Of a DNA stretch of 64,000 nucleotides, positions 5,498-64,000 are shown piece by piece. The notes below the pieces were generated by a model. It had not been told where the DNA came from. It made no database searches and saw only the letters and a list, made by a program, of their open reading frames with translations. The stretch's first letter is position 1. Each line of letters starts with the position of its first letter. The translations under genes were made by a program, and so were the position numbers. Origin of the DNA: a virus (Duplodnaviria; Caudoviricetes); the IMG/VR virus record IMGVR_UViG_3300032324_000909, positions 76,532 to 140,531 of that record; one strand, written 5' to 3'.

Positions 5498-5834
5498 TTT
5501 ACAAGTAGACGAGGCATACGCATTTGATTACCTAACTATTTTAGAGGTAAAAAAAGACTTGTTTCCAGATAGTCCTAAAATAATAGGATATGAAAACTGT
5601 TATAAGTTTTTATCAGATCAACTCCATAATTTTAATGATATAGTTAATTCAAAAGAATACCGCAGTTTATACGAATCAAATAAAATTACCTTTGACTTAG
5701 TAGATAAAGCTAGAAATAATTTAAACGTAACAGCAAAAGAAGTAGATGATGCAAACATGGATAGATTTTATTGTAAACAAGCGCTACAGAAAGCTTTTTT
5801 TTCTACGGCTTTAGTTGAATCCAAAATAGTATAA
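5490..5834 (+). CDS. hypothetical protein in glycosylation cluster
   Basis: 114-aa ORF (FDYLTILEVKK) coupled to neighbours. Confidence 0.7.
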   Translation: MINLQVDEAYAFDYLTILEVKKDLFPDSPKIIGYENCYKFLSDQLHNFNDIVNSKEYRSLYESNKITFDLVDKARNNLNVTAKEVDDANMDRFYCKQALQKAFFSTALVESKIV

Positions 5835-5836
5835 AT

Positions 5837-6493
5837 ATGAATATTGAAGAACACTGTTATAACAATTTCGTTAAAAATGGAGACATTGCCTATGATATTG
5901 GGGCACATATTGGTTCAGTGTCTAATCGACTTATTAGTATTGGGGCGAGCAAGGTATTAGCGTTTGAGCCATGCGAAGCAAATTTTATTGATCTAAAAAA
6001 CAATACAAAAGGAAACAATGTTGAATGCTATAACATAGCTTTTCACGATAGAGAATATACATGTAAAACAAAATTTAGAGACTGCAGACAGGGTGTCCCA
6101 TTAGACATGGAGCAAGAAATTAAGTATGTTAAATTTGATAATTTTATTCTATCCAATAATTTAGATTTACCACAATTTGTTAAAATAGACATAGAAGGTA
6201 TGGAAAGTCTTATATATAAGAATATGGAGTTTTTGTTTACAAGTAGTCGTCCAGTAATTTTTACAGAGTTTCATGTACCAGAAATAGGAAATACAGCACA
6301 AGATTACGAAGATAATCCCCACTGGAGGAGGCCAGAGCAAGGAGGGTATAACTTTAATAATCTTCGAGACAACAATTATTCCTTTATAGACAAAACACTA
6401 AAATTAACAACGGATGGAGAATATAATCCCACAGCAGGACACTTTGGAAGAATTTTCATTCCAAACGAAAAGATATCTATCTATATAAATTAA
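5837..6493 (+). CDS. FkbM-family SAM-dependent methyltransferase
   Basis: YDIGAHIG, AFEP, VKIDIEGME. Confidence 0.88.
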   Translation: MNIEEHCYNNFVKNGDIAYDIGAHIGSVSNRLISIGASKVLAFEPCEANFIDLKNNTKGNNVECYNIAFHDREYTCKTKFRDCRQGVPLDMEQEIKYVKFDNFILSNNLDLPQFVKIDIEGMESLIYKNMEFLFTSSRPVIFTEFHVPEIGNTAQDYEDNPHWRRPEQGGYNFNNLRDNNYSFIDKTLKLTTDGEYNPTAGHFGRIFIPNEKISIYIN

Positions 6494-7675: not shown

Positions 7676-8092
7676 GTGAAATTTAAGAACTTATATGGTA
7701 AATATGTAAATAAAAACATAACCCCATATTTAGCAGAATGGAATAAGCCCTGTAGAAGTAAGGCCCAAACCAATGTTAAAAAATTCTTTGAACTGTATTG
7801 GAACACTCACATAGTGTGCGAGGAATTTCCAGTTTTAGGCAGTAGAATGAAATGTGACCTCTTAAACCTAACCAAGAAAATTGCCGTAGAAACCCACGGA
7901 CAACAGCACGATAAATTCGTACCCTTCTTCCATAAGAACCGTACGGCATTTAAAAAATCATTTAAAAGAGATCTGCAAAAGTACAACTGGCTTGAAGAAA
8001 ATGGATTTAAGGTTATAGAGATATTTGACCACGAAATCAAAGACCTCACAGTAGAATGGTTTAAGGAAAAGTTTGATATAGAAATAATTTAA
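7676..8092 (+). CDS. Vsr/DUF559-like PD-(D/E)XK endonuclease
   Basis: EEFPV...CDL...AVETHGQQH...RDLQK...NGFKVIEI. Confidence 0.75.
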   Translation: MKFKNLYGKYVNKNITPYLAEWNKPCRSKAQTNVKKFFELYWNTHIVCEEFPVLGSRMKCDLLNLTKKIAVETHGQQHDKFVPFFHKNRTAFKKSFKRDLQKYNWLEENGFKVIEIFDHEIKDLTVEWFKEKFDIEII

Positions 8093-8126
8093 TTTACTTC
8101 TCGATAAAGATATCATATCTTTAGAT

Positions 8127-8735
8127 ATGAGTATTTTTTATATAGGCATTGGAGGGGTCGCTAGATCCGGAAAAGATAGTTTCGCCAATAATCTTTTAGA
8201 AATTTTAAAACAAAATAATTTTAAAGTAATTAAAAGCTCTTTGGCCGAACCGTTAAAGCATGATTGTAAGGAGTTTATATCATCCAAACTTAATCTTGAC
8301 GTTTGGACTGACAAGACAGAAGAAAAGGCTATTTTTAGAGAAATGCTAGTTTGGTATGGTAAAGTAAAAAGACAGCAATCAGAAGGAAAGTATTGGACTA
8401 ACCTTCTCACTAAAAAGGTAGAAATAGAGTCTCCAGAAATTTGCATAGTTCCAGATGTTAGATACCTACAATATCCAGAAGACGAAGTTTTTTGGCTTAA
8501 AGAAAAAATGAAAGGTATTCTAATCCATATAGAAAGAAAGGACATTAATGGCGATATTGTTCCACCAGCAAATATGGACGAATCAATTAATGATAAATTA
8601 ATTAAAGATAGCGCAGATTACTCTGTAGTTTGGCCAACATATGCTCCGGAAGATCTTTCTGATCTTGCAAATGATGTAAAAAAGGTTTACCATGAATTTA
8701 TAGAACAAAAAATATATGCAGCAAAAAATTCGTAG
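8127..8735 (+). CDS. deoxynucleoside monophosphate kinase
   Basis: GVARSGKDS, LAEPLK, PDVRY..E. Confidence 0.8.
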   Translation: MSIFYIGIGGVARSGKDSFANNLLEILKQNNFKVIKSSLAEPLKHDCKEFISSKLNLDVWTDKTEEKAIFREMLVWYGKVKRQQSEGKYWTNLLTKKVEIESPEICIVPDVRYLQYPEDEVFWLKEKMKGILIHIERKDINGDIVPPANMDESINDKLIKDSADYSVVWPTYAPEDLSDLANDVKKVYHEFIEQKIYAAKNS

Positions 8736-29189: not shown

Positions 29190-29873
29190 ATGACCACAAA
29201 AGCACAAGCTAGAAAGAATCTTAAGAAGGCTGTTAAAGCCTATAAAGAGAAAGTTCGCCAACCTGTTACTGTTGAGCTTCAGGAAGAGCATATCCCAACT
29301 GTTCTGAAGGCATTGGAAGTGTATCAGCGCTTAAAACTTGGTCAGGTTAATATTGCCCTCGATGAAGCATTTGGCTATTCATTGGCCTATGAAGACAAAC
29401 AAGAGATTCATAATTGTGCTAGGAAGTATTTGTTCAAAGATACAGATTTAGAGAACAATCCTAATGTATCCTATGGCATCTATAACCAAGAGAAGGTTGG
29501 TGATGCAACTATGGCCTATGAGATTTATAAGGTTCTAGGGAGGTACAAAGCTTTTAAGGACAATGATGGGTGGGCAGATTATACCAGAAGGTTTGATAAG
29601 CCTCATTCTCATACTGGAGTTCCTTTGCCTGTAGTTCAAGGAGCTATTGAGCATAAGAACTTTAAGATCCCTAAGAAGCTTTGGAAGAAAATTGCTAATG
29701 CTATTGAGAATAAGGACACAGCTGATTGGAGTGATATCTGGAAGAGTATTGACAAAGCTATGCCTAAGTTGCCAAGAGGTGAGAAGTCAGAGATCTTTGG
29801 TGGAGACTTTATCAGTGATGGGTATTATGTAAAGGTTCATAGTCCAATTAAGCCTAAAGAGGAGGAGAAGTAA
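29190..29873 (+). CDS. hypothetical protein
   Basis: Start moved to ATG 29190 behind TTGAAG-17-TAGTAT. Confidence 0.7.
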   Translation: MTTKAQARKNLKKAVKAYKEKVRQPVTVELQEEHIPTVLKALEVYQRLKLGQVNIALDEAFGYSLAYEDKQEIHNCARKYLFKDTDLENNPNVSYGIYNQEKVGDATMAYEIYKVLGRYKAFKDNDGWADYTRRFDKPHSHTGVPLPVVQGAIEHKNFKIPKKLWKKIANAIENKDTADWSDIWKSIDKAMPKLPRGEKSEIFGGDFISDGYYVKVHSPIKPKEEEK

Positions 29874-29874
29874 T

Positions 29875-30222
29875 ATGATTGAACCAGTAATTGACATTGA
29901 TGGATATCCAACTGAAGAGACTGTAGAGTTTCTTGAACATTGGCAGAACTTTAAAGATGCTAAAGAAGCAATGGACTTTGCTTTGAAGGCATTAAAGAAG
30001 CTGTGCTATGCAACAGTGAAGCAAGAAAACAATTATATCTATATTGCAACTGGTGGGTGGAGTGGCTGTGAAGATATTATTAGAGCAATGAAGAAGAATT
30101 TTTATTGTAGTAATTTGCTTATTGCTTCATTATCTGGTGGTGGTTATTATTATGCTGACCCTTTTATTGATAATCTCAAGACTTATGACTTTAAAGTAAC
30201 AGTAGCCTATAAGATTGACTGA
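29875..30222 (+). CDS. hypothetical protein
   Basis: DGYPT...ATGGWSG.E motif; TAATATG coupling. Confidence 0.75.
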   Translation: MIEPVIDIDGYPTEETVEFLEHWQNFKDAKEAMDFALKALKKLCYATVKQENNYIYIATGGWSGCEDIIRAMKKNFYCSNLLIASLSGGGYYYADPFIDNLKTYDFKVTVAYKID

Positions 30223-47663: not shown

Positions 47664-48191
47664 ATGAAGAATACACAAAAAACACAGAAACTCGGATGGC
47701 TTGAGCCAGAAGATAGCTTTGAAATACCTTCATTAAAAGAGTTAATGAGAAATCTAAGGGTTATTTCTACCAACGAGTCAAGCACTTCTGTACAAGGAGA
47801 ACGCAGAGACAGCGTTACAGACGATTGGAAAAGCTTTAGGTTCCCGATTTCTAACGATGTAAATGTTGTAATAGTTGAGAAGTCTTCCAAGGAATCCACG
47901 CGCGAACCCAAACTTTCACAAAAAACAGAAAATAAAAATATGAATACAGAAAATACAGAAAACGTCTCGCCCCGCAGAAGGGGGCGCCCATCGAAACATA
48001 CCAAGCCGCTAAACGAACTAGGCGGAACTTCTGGAGAGTTTACCGTAAACGATATTGTTTCCAAAAATGACATCAAGGAATACGAAGCCCATAATTTGGT
48101 AAGAAGTGCCCTTAAGCAGGGTAAGGTTACCATTGTGAAGGAAATTTCCGGTGGCAGGGGTAAGCCCAAAAAAGTCTATCGCCTATCTTAA
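47664..48191 (+). CDS. putative DNA-binding protein (AT-hook + winged-helix-like)
   Basis: RRRGRP, GRGKPKKVY; TTGCTA-17-TACCAT upstream. Confidence 0.6.
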   Translation: MKNTQKTQKLGWLEPEDSFEIPSLKELMRNLRVISTNESSTSVQGERRDSVTDDWKSFRFPISNDVNVVIVEKSSKESTREPKLSQKTENKNMNTENTENVSPRRRGRPSKHTKPLNELGGTSGEFTVNDIVSKNDIKEYEAHNLVRSALKQGKVTIVKEISGGRGKPKKVYRLS

Positions 48192-60830: not shown

Positions 60831-60865
60831 TTGCATTTGTACCCATTTAGAACTATCATAAAACC

Positions 60866-61777
60866 ATGCACCGTACTGGTTATTGCTGTATAAATCTTAC
60901 CCTAGATGAGAGTTTCAAAACTATGAAGCTCACTTGGGCAAATAAGAATGAGAACATAGTAGAAGAAAAGTGGAAGAGTATAGTAGAACATAATATAAAC
61001 TTATTGGTAAAAATTACTAATTGGAATATTGCAAATAATATATTCTTATATAGGATTAGTAGTGATCTTATTCCTTTTGCAGATCATGAGAAGTGGGGGT
61101 ATCTTTGGAAGGATAGTCTAGACAGTGAGTGGATGAGGGAGTTGGTAGAACCGGCCCGGCATGTCCTAAGACTTTATAGAAGTCTAGGCGGCAGGCTAAC
61201 TATTCACCCCGGCCAATTTGTGAGCTTGAGTTCGCCAAATAAGCAGACAAGGGTTAATAGTATAGCCCATCTAGAGTATCATGGAGAACTTTTAGACTTA
61301 TTAGAACTACCTTGTAATTATGATTGTCCTATAAATATACATATAAGTAATGGTACTAAAGGAGAAGCTGTAGTTGATAATGTTAAGGAGAGTTTAGAAC
61401 TACTATCTTTAAGTGTTACTAGAAGATTGGTATTTGAGAACGAGCAGAGTGGCTATTGGAAGCCCGGCAATATAAAGAAACACTTTAAAGTACCTATTAC
61501 ATTAGATTTTCATCATCTATTAATTAATCCACATCATGAAGATGAGTATACTCTGGACGAAATAGTCAAATTTACGAGCGAAAGTTGGCCAAATAATGAC
61601 CCCGTACAGCATTGGTCAGAGGGCCGGGCCCACGAAAAGGATGTGGCCCACAGTGACTACGTATCCAAGATGCCGGATTCTCCATATGATATAGAAGTAG
61701 AAGCAAAGAAAAAAGAATTGAGTGTAATACCACATTTGCGAAATAGAAATTGCCAAATAAGTAATGTATTATATTGA
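60866..61777 (+). CDS. uvsE: UV damage endonuclease
   Basis: GYCCIN, YRISSDLIP, HPGQF, INIH, VFENE, LDFHH, HWS, AHSD, EVEAKKKE. Confidence 0.92.
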   Translation: MHRTGYCCINLTLDESFKTMKLTWANKNENIVEEKWKSIVEHNINLLVKITNWNIANNIFLYRISSDLIPFADHEKWGYLWKDSLDSEWMRELVEPARHVLRLYRSLGGRLTIHPGQFVSLSSPNKQTRVNSIAHLEYHGELLDLLELPCNYDCPINIHISNGTKGEAVVDNVKESLELLSLSVTRRLVFENEQSGYWKPGNIKKHFKVPITLDFHHLLINPHHEDEYTLDEIVKFTSESWPNNDPVQHWSEGRAHEKDVAHSDYVSKMPDSPYDIEVEAKKKELSVIPHLRNRNCQISNVLY

Positions 61778-61854
61778 ATTTGTGAACAAAAAGTTGCTAA
61801 ATAATAAGTAATGGTTAAATGCTGTTATTTGATGTAATATTACATTAAACCAAT

Positions 61855-62325
61855 ATGAGTAATTGTATATTTTGTAATAAAGAAATTTTAAATAACGGGT
61901 CATTAACTGCACACCAAAAAACATGCAAAGAAAATCCAAATAAAATTAAATTTTTTCATTCTCCCAATGCTGGTAAACAAAAAGGGTCAATTGCTTGGAA
62001 TAAGGGAATGGTTTATGAAAATGAAAATTTAGAAAGAGTTATACAACAAATAGAAACTGGTAATTATAAAAGATTTGGGGAAGCACATATAAGAAGAAGG
62101 GTTAAAAAGTATTTAATTCATAAACATGGACATAAATGCATGATGTGTGCTTTGACCGAGTGGCAGAACGTGCCTATACCTTTAGTTACTGATCATATAG
62201 ATGGAGATTCTACTAATAATGAAATTTCTAATTTTAGAATTATATGCAATAATTGTGACTCTGTACTGCCAACATTTAAAGGAAAAAATATTGGCAAAGG
62301 AAGAAAATTAAGATATAATGTATGA
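61855..62325 (+). CDS. HNH homing endonuclease-like protein
   Basis: C2HC finger, AWNKG, CMMC, DHIDGD..NN...N....CNNC; adjacent to tRNA. Confidence 0.8.
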   Translation: MSNCIFCNKEILNNGSLTAHQKTCKENPNKIKFFHSPNAGKQKGSIAWNKGMVYENENLERVIQQIETGNYKRFGEAHIRRRVKKYLIHKHGHKCMMCALTEWQNVPIPLVTDHIDGDSTNNEISNFRIICNNCDSVLPTFKGKNIGKGRKLRYNV

Positions 62326-62330
62326 TACTG

Positions 62331-62421
62331 GGAGCGGTGCCTGAGCGGTCATAAAGGAGCTGTTTACTAAACAGCCGAACCCTAACCGGTTCCGTGGGTT
62401 CGAATCCCACTCGCTCCTCCA
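62331..62421 (+). tRNA. tRNA-Ser(ACT), long variable arm, U73
   Basis: GGAGCGG/TCGCTCC, GCTGT-TTACTAA-ACAGC, GTTCGAATC, CCA. Confidence 0.85.
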
Positions 62422-62456
62422 CCTCCTTATTTACGAACACGAAATTGCCAAATAAT

Positions 62457-62936
62457 ATGATCGAAATAACTGATATACCACAATATATTTTAATAAATGC
62501 TATTAAACGTAGTAAAAAATTAGGACGTTTACATAATAGTATTACAAAAGGTGCCGGAAATATTGCTGGTTATATTGGTCAGGGTCTAGTGGCTAGACAT
62601 TTAAAAGCCGAGGACGCCGATACATATGAATATGATGTAATAAAAGATGAGATTAGATATGAAGTAAAGACAAAGCGTTGTACTAGTAAGCCAAAGCCAG
62701 AATACGAATGCAGTATATCAGAAGCAAATACAGGACAAGAATGTGATTATTATGTATTTGTACGTGTTATGGATGATTTTTCAAAAGCATGGATACTAGG
62801 AAAGAAAAAGCCAAAAAAGTATTTTAAACAGGCTAGGTTTTGCAAAAAGGGCGACGTTGACGAGAAGAGCCACCTTGGTTGGAAATTCAAAGGGGATTGC
62901 CATAACCTACCAATAGCAGAACTAGAAGAAATTTAA
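62457..62936 (+). CDS. PD-(D/E)XK-like nuclease
   Basis: YD......YEVKTK, CDYYVF; start moved to ATG 62457 (track start lies in tRNA). Confidence 0.7.
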   Translation: MIEITDIPQYILINAIKRSKKLGRLHNSITKGAGNIAGYIGQGLVARHLKAEDADTYEYDVIKDEIRYEVKTKRCTSKPKPEYECSISEANTGQECDYYVFVRVMDDFSKAWILGKKKPKKYFKQARFCKKGDVDEKSHLGWKFKGDCHNLPIAELEEI

Positions 62937-62948
62937 TTTAAATAATTT

Positions 62949-63080
62949 ATGAACGAAAACACGCCAAATAAGAGTACCGGCGTCGGGAAGGGTGATAAGG
63001 ATAGGTCAAGCTATTCAAAAAAATATAAAGATAACTATGATTTAATTGATTGGAAAAAGAAACGTAAGACTGATAAGTAA
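62949..63080 (+). CDS. small basic protein (not in ORF track)
   Basis: GKGDKDR...KYKDNYDLIDW, a common small phage protein pattern. Confidence 0.6.
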   Translation: MNENTPNKSTGVGKGDKDRSSYSKKYKDNYDLIDWKKKRKTDK

Positions 63081-63297
63081 ATTTACGAACGCGAAACGGC
63101 CAAATAATATAATACTTATTTACGAATAGAAAAATGCCAAATAATACGTATAATAAACATGGACGGAAAAACATGTTTAATTATATCAGAAATCATAGTA
63201 TTTTTATTAAAATTAATATCAGGCAATTAATTCGGGGTTAGAATAAAAATGAATTAAAAGTTGACACAAGGGACAATTACCTGTAATATAATACCAT

Positions 63298-63382
63298 GCT
63301 CTGGTGGCGGAATTGGCAGACGCCCGGGTTTTAGGCACCCGTGCCGCAAGGCGTGAGAGTTCGAGTCTCTCCTAGAGCACCA
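63298..63382 (+). tRNA. tRNA-Leu(TAG)
   Basis: CGGGT-TTTAGGC-ACCCG, V-arm, CCA; TTGACA-17-TAATAT upstream. Confidence 0.95.
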
Positions 63383-63402: not shown

Positions 63403-63723
63403 ATGACAAACAACAAACGAGGACGTAAAGCTGGCAGTGGAAGTTTCATGAGTGTTTCACTCGCGGAGCTTAATGCAAATCTTAAACCAAACGCACGAGT
63501 AATTGTGTGGGGTAGATATGCACAGATGCTAGGACTATCCGGCAAGAAGATCGATGCCAAGCCAGACGCACTTATCGCTGCAGTTGCTGGTGGCAAGAGC
63601 GACGTGGAATTGGACACCTTTGAAGAGAAGGTGGAGGCAACGGAAAAGACAGAGAAATCCGGTGCGCCTCTATTGACCGAACTTGTTCAGAAGGTTTCGG
63701 TCGAGCTTGAAAGTTTCGAATAA
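63403..63723 (+). CDS. hypothetical protein with N-terminal KRGRK
   Basis: 106 aa. Confidence 0.65.
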   Translation: MTNNKRGRKAGSGSFMSVSLAELNANLKPNARVIVWGRYAQMLGLSGKKIDAKPDALIAAVAGGKSDVELDTFEEKVEATEKTEKSGAPLLTELVQKVSVELESFE

Positions 63724-63763: not shown

Positions 63764-64000
63764 ATGGAAAATTACTTCGAGGAGATGATCGGTCAGGACA
63801 AAACCAAGCGCGTCTTGTCTTTCTATATAGATGCATTTGAGAAGAGTGAAATACTCCCTCATTTATTCGTGGTAGGTCAGCGTGGACAGGGAAAAACCAT
63901 GTTGGCTACACAGGTGGCAAAGAACCTACGTAGCAAGACTCTAGGGCGTGTTAAACCCATGCTCACGATCAACTGCTCTACGCTCAAGAACGTTCGCCAG
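63764..64000 (+). CDS. RuvB-like AAA+ ATPase, N-terminal part
   Basis: FEEMIGQDKTK..L, LPHLFVVGQRGQGKTMLA; runs off window. Confidence 0.75.
   Translation, partial: MENYFEEMIGQDKTKRVLSFYIDAFEKSEILPHLFVVGQRGQGKTMLATQVAKNLRSKTLGRVKPMLTINCSTLKNVRQ

Follow-up and report, generated by a model that had tools for sequence, protein, structure and literature searches.

The window analyzed here, a 64,000-nucleotide stretch of phage DNA, comprises bases 76532 to 140531 of a viral record. The record is 140,531 bp long, with a terminal repeat of 123 bp that stems from assembly overlap; genome-wide scans covered it in full. The region of interest is AT-rich throughout and carries its genes on the plus strand. 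It adjoins a 1-kb noncoding region, within which lies the sole terminator of the 59.7- to 64-kb segment, and includes a gene for the UV-damage endonuclease UvdE (60866 to 61777; Pfam PF03851, E = 3e-43; PHROG 8420). A leaderless sigma70-type promoter of its own was predicted for this gene from the sequence (TTGCAT at 60831 to 60836, N17, TATCAT at 60854 to 60859, N6, ATG). Beyond UvdE lies a 510-bp HNH endonuclease cassette (61813 to 62322, with the ORF at 61855 to 62325), which is inserted here in comparison with G002, a near-identical phage. The cassette contains a ATGTAATA late box, and its 3' end carries a near-consensus sigma70 promoter (TTGGCA-N17-TATAAT, 62291 to 62319) pointed at a tRNA-Ser gene (anticodon ACT; 62331 to 62421).

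Further to the right are a 159-aa ORF (62457 to 62936), which matches no family and has homologues after UvdE in two relatives (L040 and L150), and the gene of a 43-aa protein (62949 to 63080) of the family "GxGKGDxxR...NYDxIxW," referred to below as GKGD. The latter is a conserved, real gene, and its family comprises more than 200 sequence clusters. A tRNA-Leu gene (63298 to 63382) with its own sigma70-type promoter (TTGACA at 63261, N17, TAATAT) bounds the motif region on the right, and a gene for a 106-aa clade-core protein with the N terminus KRGRKAGSGSF (63403 to 63723) adjoins the array. The array neighbors also include a winged-helix AAA+ protein that is RuvB-like, and among all of these (UvdE, HNH, tRNAs, small ORFs, and the RuvB-like protein) there is no recognizable initiator gene. 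GC skew, proposed earlier as a check on the region, was found to track gene strand only.

A two-block motif repeated on one strand

An earlier reading of this DNA had described eight same-strand copies of the pattern TTTRYGAR-N9-GCYAAATAA(T/G) in this region. All eight were recovered as exact matches on the plus strand (designated M1 to M8), and none appeared in 100 shuffles. When up to three mismatches were allowed, the sole extra match was at 60920, which is within chance expectation. This match and another at 61013 had been listed as weaker copies; since both score at most 10 bits and are absent from UvdE orthologues, we attribute them to chance. In a position weight matrix scan of both strands of the whole genome, the eight sites scored 31 to 38 bits and the runner-up reached only 11 bits, in line with the earlier observation that no copy had been noticed elsewhere in the window. 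Single half-sites are not enriched elsewhere in the genome.

Four of the copies lie in coding sequence, as had been stated: two in frame in UvdE, one over its tail, and one over the ATG of the 43-aa ORF. M1 (61217 to 61243; 31.7 bits) provides codons 118 to 126 of UvdE (FVSLSSPNK) and M2 (61571 to 61597; 35.0 bits) encodes FTSESWPNN. In these UvdE-internal copies, native codons were replaced with nothing inserted, and the rare codons GTG and TCG are used. The segment written over by M1 is native to UvdE, without insertion, and this copy is partly decayed in the orthologue of L069; M2 is retained in the orthologues of L052 and L069 as the clade variant TTTACTAG...GCCAAATATA. M3 (61735 to 61761) falls within the last 14 codons of UvdE in another frame and sits 13 nt after a GTGTAATA late box (61722 to 61729). 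M4 (61779 to 61805) is intergenic, with the UvdE stop codon ending 1 nt before it and the HNH cassette starting 7 nt beyond it; in G002, tRNA-Ser begins at motif position 43 of the M4 counterpart. M5 (62430 to 62456) lies 8 nt past tRNA-Ser and directly next to the ATG of the 159-aa ORF (62457), the first base of which is motif position 28. In M6 (62946 to 62972), motif positions 4 to 6 are the ATG of the 43-aa GKGD ORF, and the motif makes up its first 8 codons. The same overlap with a start codon is present in most relatives, and the motif-encoded N-terminal residues of the small protein were predicted by AF2 to be disordered. M7 (63082 to 63108) begins 1 nt after the stop codon of this ORF, and M8 (63119 to 63145) stands in tandem with it, 37 bp apart.

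Among relatives, the core consensus is A-TTTRCKAAY-N8-GCCAAATAA, a 28-bp site made of two blocks. Its internal spacing is rigid, being standard in 253 unique sites and one nucleotide longer in a single site, which bears out the invariant 9-nt spacer reported at first. The internal spacer is an A-run in 64 sites, a T-run in 10, and mixed in 39, at fixed length. The motif RNA folds no better than shuffled sequence, with no hairpin and no stable structure, and Rfam covariance models applied to 59 to 64 kb and to three related loci returned tRNAs only; a structured RNA is not supported. Interchangeable A- and T-run spacers of one length, together with the lack of an RNA fold, point to recognition of the DNA duplex.

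Conservation and placement in related phages

The element is old and clade-wide. We found 473 unique sites across 128 related loci, on more than 100 related contigs, and always on a single strand (strand counts at related loci, 217:0 and 479:0). Downstream neighbors are codirectional with the motif in 337 cases versus 32 and upstream neighbors in 422 versus 26, about 90% overall, and in L133 one copy keeps its orientation though it lies between two minus-strand genes. An element that is both polar and clade specific fits one dedicated recognition factor. It ranks among the sharpest cis-signals of these uncultured phages, whose clade is abundant in metagenomes.

Each genome carries about 4 to 8 copies, a number that stays steady while positions shift, in a single cluster of direct repeats spread over 0.3 to 3 kb among tRNAs and ORFs. 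In genomes of the same type as this phage and in those of the G001 type, the cluster adjoins the largest noncoding region; in the L080/L163 type, the array has no neighboring noncoding region. In most relatives, three to four tandem copies lead into the start codon of the GKGD gene, ahead of UvdE, with no other promoter between the array and that codon. Tandem copies of the 28-bp site are spaced 31 (the minimum) to 39 bp apart, with modes at 33 and 35 bp, and the spacing of orthologous pairs differs by indels of 2 to 6 bp. There is no helical phasing, and phased iterons are not supported.

Four positionally orthologous copies have conserved blocks and drifting intercopy gaps. Near-invariant blocks with rigid spacing amid drifting flanks indicate purifying selection on the sequence itself; the interchange of A- and T-run spacers and the overwriting of native UvdE codons likewise agree with the original prediction that selection acts on the DNA. 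Moreover, subclade variants (GCG versus GCT at positions 4 to 6) switch in all copies together, which fits a coevolving reader.

The copies are placed tightly at gene boundaries. They start 1 to 11 nt past stop codons or tRNA 3' ends and, 0 to 6 nt beyond their end, are followed by a tRNA or an ATG, by a promoter box (TTGACA or the late GTGTAAT), or by a further copy. The junction between tRNA-Ser and the motif is conserved across subclades with a gap of 1 to 11 nt, and tRNA 5' ends were found at motif positions 27, 32, 33, 34, 36, and 42 to 59. In G001 and L265, three tRNAs have one copy apiece. In at least nine contexts, a TTGACA or GTGTAAT box follows a copy at a distance of 0 to 6 nt, and in L039 and L265, copies lie between a sigma70 start and the tRNAs driven by that start. 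Gene order around the arrays is strongly shuffled among relatives, three different nuclease-type or helix-turn-helix (HTH) genes are inserted next to copies, and in one cassette swap, with two copies as its exact borders, a second tRNA-Thr has taken the place of tRNA-Glu.

DNA and protein searches for cultured relatives in a phage collection yielded nothing beyond matches to tRNAs and remote similarities to rIIA or RuvB-like proteins. A tandem-motif scan of bacterial genomes covering 185,579 species gave three matches, all unrelated. A Lachnospiraceae metagenome-assembled genome with 33-bp repeats before a carbamate kinase-like gene shares no phage genes and was taken as a chance match. Literature searches with the motif string and for phages with UvdE and transfer-messenger RNA (tmRNA) returned nothing relevant.

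Known element classes and candidate readers

The motif was said at the outset to match neither promoter class of this phage, and comparisons with both the sigma70-type early class (TTGACA-N17-TATAAT-N6-start) and the GTGTAA late box led to the same conclusion. If positions 1 to 6 are taken as a -35 box, the -10 box falls at positions 24 to 29, of which positions 27 to 29 are unconserved; among 113 unique sites, only 14% have a T at position 29, the would-be -7 T. TAnnnT at positions 24 to 29 is a minority form (78/433 copies), and under the predicted 35-nt sigma70 rule, one tRNA-Thr (position 36) fits and the tRNAs at 27, 32, 33, and 34 precede the predicted start. With the late-promoter class, block 2 (GCCAAATA) shares AAATA only, and the motif has an extra conserved block 9 bp upstream that is absent from late boxes.

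Other classes are not supported either. For a T4 MotA/AsiA middle promoter, neither PF09158 (MotCF) nor PF09010 (AsiA) had a match in the genome at E ≤ 1, and for a T7-like RNA polymerase promoter, PF00940 had none, in a search unvalidated by control genomes. The only polymerase-size ORFs are the tape measure gene, an 845-aa ORF, and an unannotated 860-aa ORF by the tape measure gene, and no second sigma factor was found besides the one encoded at genome positions 29270 to 29962. Integron attC sites and other site-specific recombination find no support, since the genome gave no match to PF00589 or PF00239 (controls were positive) and the sites form no hairpin. Nor does a CRISPR or mini-CRISPR array, which would have regular spacers of about 26 to 40 bp; the intercopy gaps range from 4 to 12 bp up to 2 kb and contain genes. 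Binding sites of Fis, IHF, and LexA/Cheo-box type and promoters of the sigma28, sigma32, sigma54, ECF, and Bacteroidetes -7/-33 types, compared by eye, show at most one half-site or the wrong spacing.

The proteins encoded at 47664 to 48191 and 63403 to 63723 had been put forward as candidate binders. Neither could be linked to the motif and neither has a family match; the latter, the clade-core 106-aa neighbor of the array, has no usable fold (AF2 pLDDT, 49). The same holds for the GKGD small protein (pLDDT, 58), which has neither a family nor a usable fold. For the candidate proteins, Atlas pointed weakly to DUF5681 (0.81), but hmmscan of 22 members did not support this. Whether it acts as a promoter or as a protein-binding site, the 28-bp element could serve as a bait for its reader protein and as a marker for recognizing the clade.

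A putative transcription signal and its alternatives

We consider it very probable that some protein reads the motif, and we lean toward a role in transcription; that the motif is itself a promoter is a more tentative suggestion. With the same reserve, we put first the proposal that it is a factor-dependent transcription signal, constituting a third promoter class, the repeats of which also flank swappable cassettes. In such a scheme, the motif would be a strand-specific duplex-DNA recognition site for one sequence-specific factor, its two fixed blocks would be kept a rigid distance apart by the A- or T-tract, and every copy would act alone. The copies would punctuate an accessory module of tRNAs, UvdE, and small ORFs, with which the rightward early region opens right after the 1-kb noncoding stretch. 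A specificity factor, of phage or host origin, would direct the host RNA polymerase to the motif, and transcription would start a few bases past it, at about positions 31 to 36, so that every cassette, whether a tRNA or a small gene, would have a start to itself. The 28 bp shared around each cassette would then provide homology for swaps between coinfecting relatives. If so, the phage would possess a third transcription class with a putative specificity factor, beside its leaderless sigma70-type and sigma-dependent late promoters, and each tRNA would be supplied with its own start.

Besides the polarity of the copies, their placement at gene boundaries, the signs of duplex recognition and of DNA-level selection, the concerted subclade variants, and the cassette swap described above, several features are consistent with this proposal. 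Block 2, (Y)GC-CAAATA, resembles the phage late box, GTG-TAAATA. An ATG lies 14 nt after G1 in 6 of 25 late boxes; applied to the motif, this rule predicts a start at position 32, and one tRNA-Thr begins at 32 and tRNA-Asn at 33. Another tRNA-Thr begins at 36, which equals the leaderless rule of the phage (6+17+6+6), with TAATAT at positions 24 to 29. The HNH cassette, which separates M4 from tRNA-Ser and brings its own sigma70 promoter, may also be counted in favor. On the other side, there is no constant distance from motif to start, and a start at 31 to 36 cannot serve the closest tRNAs or ATG. Where copies abut TTGACA or GTGTAAT boxes, a promoter function of the motif would be superfluous, and three to four copies at 31 to 39 bp are too tight for several polymerases at once and suit a smaller protein. 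Nevertheless, among the functions first offered for the array, a third promoter class is viable and now leads, whereas initiator iterons are weakened, with copies that are unphased, shifted by 2 to 6 bp, and interspersed, and with no initiator adjacent; for packaging, partition, or DNA entry, no support was obtained.

Promoter-early stem-loops (PeSLs) of T4-type phages are short regulatory repeats, composed of a strong sigma70 promoter and a terminator stem-loop, that flank small nonessential genes in a hyperplastic region; by recombining with one another, they allow the cassettes to be rearranged (Arbiol et al. 2010, PMC2839356). The motif copies are likewise short, putatively regulatory repeats, all directed with transcription and flanking small genes, and the cassettes that they bound vary between relatives, as seen in the tRNA-Glu/tRNA-Thr swap and the shuffled gene order. 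In contrast to PeSLs, the motif lacks both stem-loop and terminator and does not conform to the sigma70 consensus, and copies of it also occur within coding sequence and in tandem stacks of three to four. On either of the two main readings, the array would represent a second, independent case of repeat-bounded cassette exchange, outside the T4-type phages. T4 middle promoters, which combine a MotA box at -30 with a -10 element and are set beside early and late promoters and inside upstream genes, offer another comparison. The two-block layout is similar, and the commonest block 1, TTTGCTAAC, begins with the same six bases as the consensus of the MotA box (TTTGCTTTA), but no MotA/AsiA homologue is present, block 2 is not a TAnnnT -10 element, and the blocks are about 1 to 3 bp closer than in T4.

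The smaller footprint would suit independent sites for a monomeric sequence-specific DNA-binding protein that are not promoters, acting as a roadblock or insulator with polarity, as Tus/Ter and TTF-I/Sal boxes do, as silencer or shut-off operators that control the accessory module, or as an array that titrates the protein. We regard this alternative as the main rival, somewhat less likely than the promoter proposal, and many observations agree with it: the packing is near the limit of nonoverlap, four orthologous copies are retained, copy number is maintained despite moved positions and partly through UvdE codons, the distance to the downstream start varies, bona fide promoters abut copies, the L133 copy keeps its orientation, and an asymmetric two-block site with an A-tract spacer suits a two-domain monomer. 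Polar barriers such as Tus/Ter and the Sal boxes behind rDNA are asymmetric sites of 20 to 30 bp, present as several unphased, independent back-up copies in one orientation just behind genes, and the motif copies share their asymmetry, multiplicity, single orientation, lack of phasing, and placement right behind genes. Unlike them, however, the motif also occurs between promoters and the genes that they drive, where a barrier is harmful; in L039 and L265, a roadblock between the sigma70 start and its tRNAs would silence them. A nontranscriptional binder, moreover, needs no strict co-orientation with neighboring genes, the GKGD gene mostly has no promoter other than the array before its start codon, and no binding protein was found. 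If this protein-binding explanation holds, the array would be a rare phage case of polar, unphased sites, some of them written into a repair gene.

It seems improbable that a monomeric phage protein docks at the copies and acts directionally on moving machines, be it as a Ter/Tus- or Sal-box-like polar barrier or as a DNA-entry/packaging landmark, guarding the junction of late genes, the 1-kb noncoding region, and the early region. To our knowledge, no such directional array has been described in any bacteriophage. Little more can be said for a landmark of DNA transactions tied to the noncoding region, that is, origin iterons or a packaging, partition, or DNA-entry signal, to which we assign a still lower probability. 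The single cluster of direct repeats per genome and its location beside the largest noncoding region in two genome types would fit, and the bipartite asymmetric sites resemble iterons bound by Rep monomers. Plasmid and phage origin iterons (lambda ori, P1, and RK2) are direct, same-orientation, asymmetric bipartite repeats, tandem as well as solitary and in some cases intragenic, all of which applies to the motif, and some phage origins, as in lambda, lie inside genes. Iteron arrays differ in that the motif spacing is unphased and drifts by indels, the copies are scattered among tRNAs and ORFs, and neither an adjacent initiator gene nor an unwinding element was identified. The L080/L163-type arrays without a noncoding region, the GC skew, the absence of Tyr and Ser recombinases from the genome, and the lack of coincidence between contig ends and arrays also speak against a landmark.

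The placement of copies between tRNAs and ORFs, touching their ends, could also reflect punctuation at the RNA level, with an unstructured 27-nt spacer in polycistronic transcripts being read by a ribonuclease or RNA-binding protein that frees tRNAs and near-leaderless mRNAs. The motif is on the transcribed strand, its RNA is unstructured, start codons occur at positions 4 to 6 or 28, and the A(-1)UUU edge, which is invariant, agrees with the RN|WUU preference of RNase E. This explanation is nonetheless very unlikely, given that A-run and U-run spacers are not equivalent in RNA, that copies were selected into UvdE coding sequence, where cleavage destroys the mRNA, that certain copies lie upstream of promoters, and that the L133 copy is antisense to its neighbors. 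Finally, the shuffled gene order, the tRNA swap bounded by copies, and the nuclease-type or HTH genes inserted beside them might suggest passive repeats, scars or homology patches of cassette shuffling without a reader of their own, but we give this hardly any credence, because blocks are nearly invariant and inner spacing is rigid over hundreds of diverged sites with drifting flanks, and 27 bp is short for homologous recombination.

The motif in this genome and its local setting

The pattern TTTRYGAR-N9-GCYAAATAAK matched the window exactly eight times, always on the plus strand, at 61217, 61571, 61735, 61779, 62430, 62946, 63082, and 63119 (M1 to M8), versus no match in 100 dinucleotide-preserving shuffles of the window; all eight same-strand copies of the original prediction were thus recovered. 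Their confinement to this cluster, originally noted for the window, was borne out by a position-weight scan of both strands of the whole genome (140,531-bp viral record, of which the window is bases 76532 to 140531), in which M1 to M8 scored 31 to 38 bits versus 11 bits for the next best site. Scanning each block separately revealed no enrichment of half-motifs elsewhere, and the 123-bp terminal repeat of the record is an assembly overlap. The “weaker copies” proposed at 60920 and 61013 did not hold up: they score at most 10 bits, are absent from orthologous UvdE genes, and are treated as chance, and tolerating three mismatches added one site, 60920, which is the chance level.

The UvdE gene (60866 to 61777; Pfam E value, 3e-43) has its own sigma70-type leaderless promoter. 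M1 and M2 lie in frame within it, occupying native codons without any insertion and using the rare codons GTG and TCG, and M3 covers its C-terminal tail. M2 and M3 are kept in UvdE orthologues at 68 to 70% DNA identity, and M1 has decayed in one orthologue. A late box of the phage's own GTGTAA-type promoter class, GTGTAATA (61722 to 61729), sits in the UvdE 3′ end 13 nt ahead of M3, likewise in locus L052, so that a late transcript would have the motif's first base as its 5′ end.

M4 follows UvdE and precedes an HNH endonuclease gene, after which tRNA-Ser is located ahead of M5. A 510-bp segment (window 61813 to 62322) is missing from the near-identical phage G002, which marks the HNH gene as an insertion, starting 7 nt after M4. 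At the 3′ end of this cassette, a near-consensus sigma70 promoter, TTGGCA-N17-TATAAT (62291 to 62319), faces outward to tRNA-Ser. The cassette also bears its own ATGTAATA late box, and in L069 an HNH gene of the same family occupies another place in the array.

M5 lies behind tRNA-Ser, with the ATG of a 159-amino-acid (aa) ORF (62457 to 62936) directly next. This ORF is without family match; by eye, its D...E-V-K spacing resembles PD-(D/E)xK nucleases, and homologues are located after UvdE in L040 and L150. Positions 4 to 6 of M6, counted from the first T of block 1, form the ATG of a 43-aa ORF (62949 to 63080). M7 and M8 lie downstream of M6 and are followed by the sigma70 promoter of tRNA-Leu, tRNA-Leu itself, a 106-aa ORF (63403 to 63723), and a RuvB-like AAA+ gene. 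No intrinsic terminators were found in the motif region.

Conservation and layout in related phages

When IMG/VR and JGI metagenomes, two sets that share some contigs, were scanned with the pattern, one-strand motif clusters turned up on many contigs of 30 to 166 kb. With a family-wide weight matrix, 217 sites were found in IMG/VR loci and 479 in 97 metagenome loci, each versus 0 on the opposite strand. Unique sites number 473, from 128 loci; their neighboring gene lies on the same strand downstream in 337/369 cases and upstream in 422/448. The logo reads A (−1, 100%), TTTRCKAAY-ranAnnnt-GCCAAATAa, with no conservation beyond position 26. Block-to-block distance is rigid (253 unique sites versus 1), upholding the fixed 9-nt spacer, with inner spacers divided into A-runs (64 sites), T-runs (10), and mixed tracts (39). 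Subclade variants change in concert (GCG versus GCT at positions 4 to 6). The motif is real, strong, and clade-wide. The T-run form TTTGCGAATGATTTTTTGCCAAATAAT usually precedes tRNA genes (L198, L199, L214, L230, L231, L242, and L265), and A-run variants precede ORFs and further copies.

In the commonest layout, the last of three or four tandem copies overlaps, at motif positions 4 to 6, the ATG/GTG of a conserved 58-aa protein (MNEKxPNKGAGKGDxPRNCFS...NYDSIxW) homologous to the 43-aa ORF of the window; UvdE comes next, sometimes behind a DUF2452-like gene. Four tandem copies are positionally orthologous among relatives, their blocks being conserved while inter-copy gaps and inner spacers drift. 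Copy-to-copy spacings in unique contexts are 33 (70 cases), 35 (42), 23 (15, overlapping), 34 (13), 31 (11), 37 (9), 32 (7), 38 (6), and 21 (4), and orthologous copy pairs differ by 2 to 6 bp, so that helical phasing is absent.

Solitary copies start 1 to 11 nt behind a stop codon or the 3′ end of a tRNA, the tRNA-Ser/motif junction being the most conserved. What follows a copy varies: a TTGACA −35 box within 0 to 6 nt (at least 5 contexts), a GTGTAAT late box at the same distance (at least 4 contexts), an ATG, or a tRNA 5′ end at motif position 27, 32, 33, 34, 36, or 42 to 59. In the related loci G001 and L265, a predicted sigma70 promoter stands just ahead of the copy leading a tRNA triplet, and every tRNA there comes with a copy of its own in front. 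Between the same two copies, one phage carries tRNA-Glu as the middle cassette where the other carries a second tRNA-Thr; such a swap, with homologous flanks, is seen between L265 (1193 to 1523) and L039 (reverse complement, 5612 to 5951). Gene order upstream of arrays is heavily shuffled between relatives. A GC-rich conserved non-coding stretch in L039 (reverse complement, 8013 to 8260), present also in L046 and L117, lies after three tandem copies and upstream of an rIIA-like gene; no Rfam family matched this stretch.

Probable recognition and mode of action

An interchangeable A-/T-tract spacer of fixed length, copies written into native codons, and concerted subclade change indicate that one dedicated factor very probably recognizes the motif as duplex DNA. 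The same features support the original prediction of a DNA-level protein-binding signal, the binding itself being something we infer from sequence. The element is predicted to be a phage-specific regulatory repeat, and its strict polarity can be accounted for by two readings.

We tentatively rank first a factor-dependent promoter, the sole one of the three functions originally proposed with positive support; initiator iterons and a DNA entry, packaging, or partition signal gained none. Block 2, (Y)GC-CAAATA, is similar to the late box GTG-TAAATA, in which G1 precedes a leaderless ATG by 14 nt in 6/25 cases; the same rule would place the RNA start at motif position 32. Two tRNAs have their 5′ ends at positions 32 and 33, and in most relatives the gene of the 58-aa (GKGD) family has no other promoter from array to start codon, both of which count for the promoter reading. 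Another tRNA begins at 36, fitting the 35-nt rule of the phage (6+17+6+6) with TAATAT at positions 24 to 29. Each tRNA cassette carries its own copy, and the HNH insertion supplies a putative substitute promoter for the tRNA-Ser it separated.

Independent non-promoter binding sites are a somewhat less likely explanation, for which speak the inconstant distance from copy to start, real promoters directly abutted by copies, four copies conserved at the tightest non-overlapping spacing, copy number upheld partly via recoding of UvdE, and one copy that keeps its orientation between minus-strand genes. Origin or packaging landmarks are improbable, RNA punctuation more so, and passive repeats the least likely.

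Irrespective of what reads them, the copies bracket cassettes that can be exchanged and in this respect work like the promoter-early stem-loops of T4-type phages (PMC2839356), repeats that likewise flank swappable cassettes; unlike these, the motif has neither a stem-loop nor a sigma70 consensus.

Several known classes were rejected: structured RNA (folding of the motif does not exceed that of shuffles, and tRNAs are the only Rfam matches), sigma70 promoters (would-be −7 T in 14% of sites), T4 middle promoters (no MotA or AsiA), the phage late class (GTGTAA boxes without upstream element), integron-like elements (no Tyr or Ser recombinase, no hairpin), CRISPR-like arrays, and phased iterons. 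A phage RNA polymerase as reader was also dismissed, since neither a T7-type domain nor an ORF of polymerase size is present. In a Lachnospiraceae MAG (L168, 1420 to 1530), the tandem pattern matched by chance a run of three to four 33-bp repeats (TTTGCGAATTGCACTATTCCAAATAT) that are unrelated to the phage and resemble operators of the ARG-box type; by eye, the product of the following gene starts like carbamate kinase.

Candidate readers and neighboring genes

None of the candidate readers could be linked to the motif. The motif-encoded N-terminus of the GKGD protein is predicted to be disordered, which argues that DNA rather than peptide is the conserved item there, and in G001 the array and the homologue are 22 kb apart, so the protein is not a universal array neighbor. 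In metagenomes, the family (window 62949 to 63080; P0001 to P0120) splits into >200 clusters at 90% identity; it matches no Pfam or PHROG family, and yields only a low-confidence helical model. The 106-aa protein adjoining the array is a clade-core gene product (85 clusters) with an invariant basic KRGRKxGSGSF N-terminus (KRGRKAGSGSF in the window), an acidic linker that varies, and a C-terminal tail that is conserved; neither a family nor a confident fold was found for it.

A single sigma-like gene (genome 29270 to 29962; L162, 9270 to 9962) matches sigma region 2, contains a Cys-rich insert, and, by eye, has a helix-turn-helix look in region 4; no sigma paralogue was found in the genome. The 25 GTGTAA/ATGTAA late boxes lack a conserved −35 element despite this apparent region 4. 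Downstream of arrays in every subclade examined lie the genes of the RuvB-like AAA+ protein (window 63764 to 64000, on into genome 1 to 891), which has a C-terminal winged helix, and of the rIIA-like protein (genome 3287 to 5581; HATPase_c_3 domain), whose partner rIIB was called in L163.
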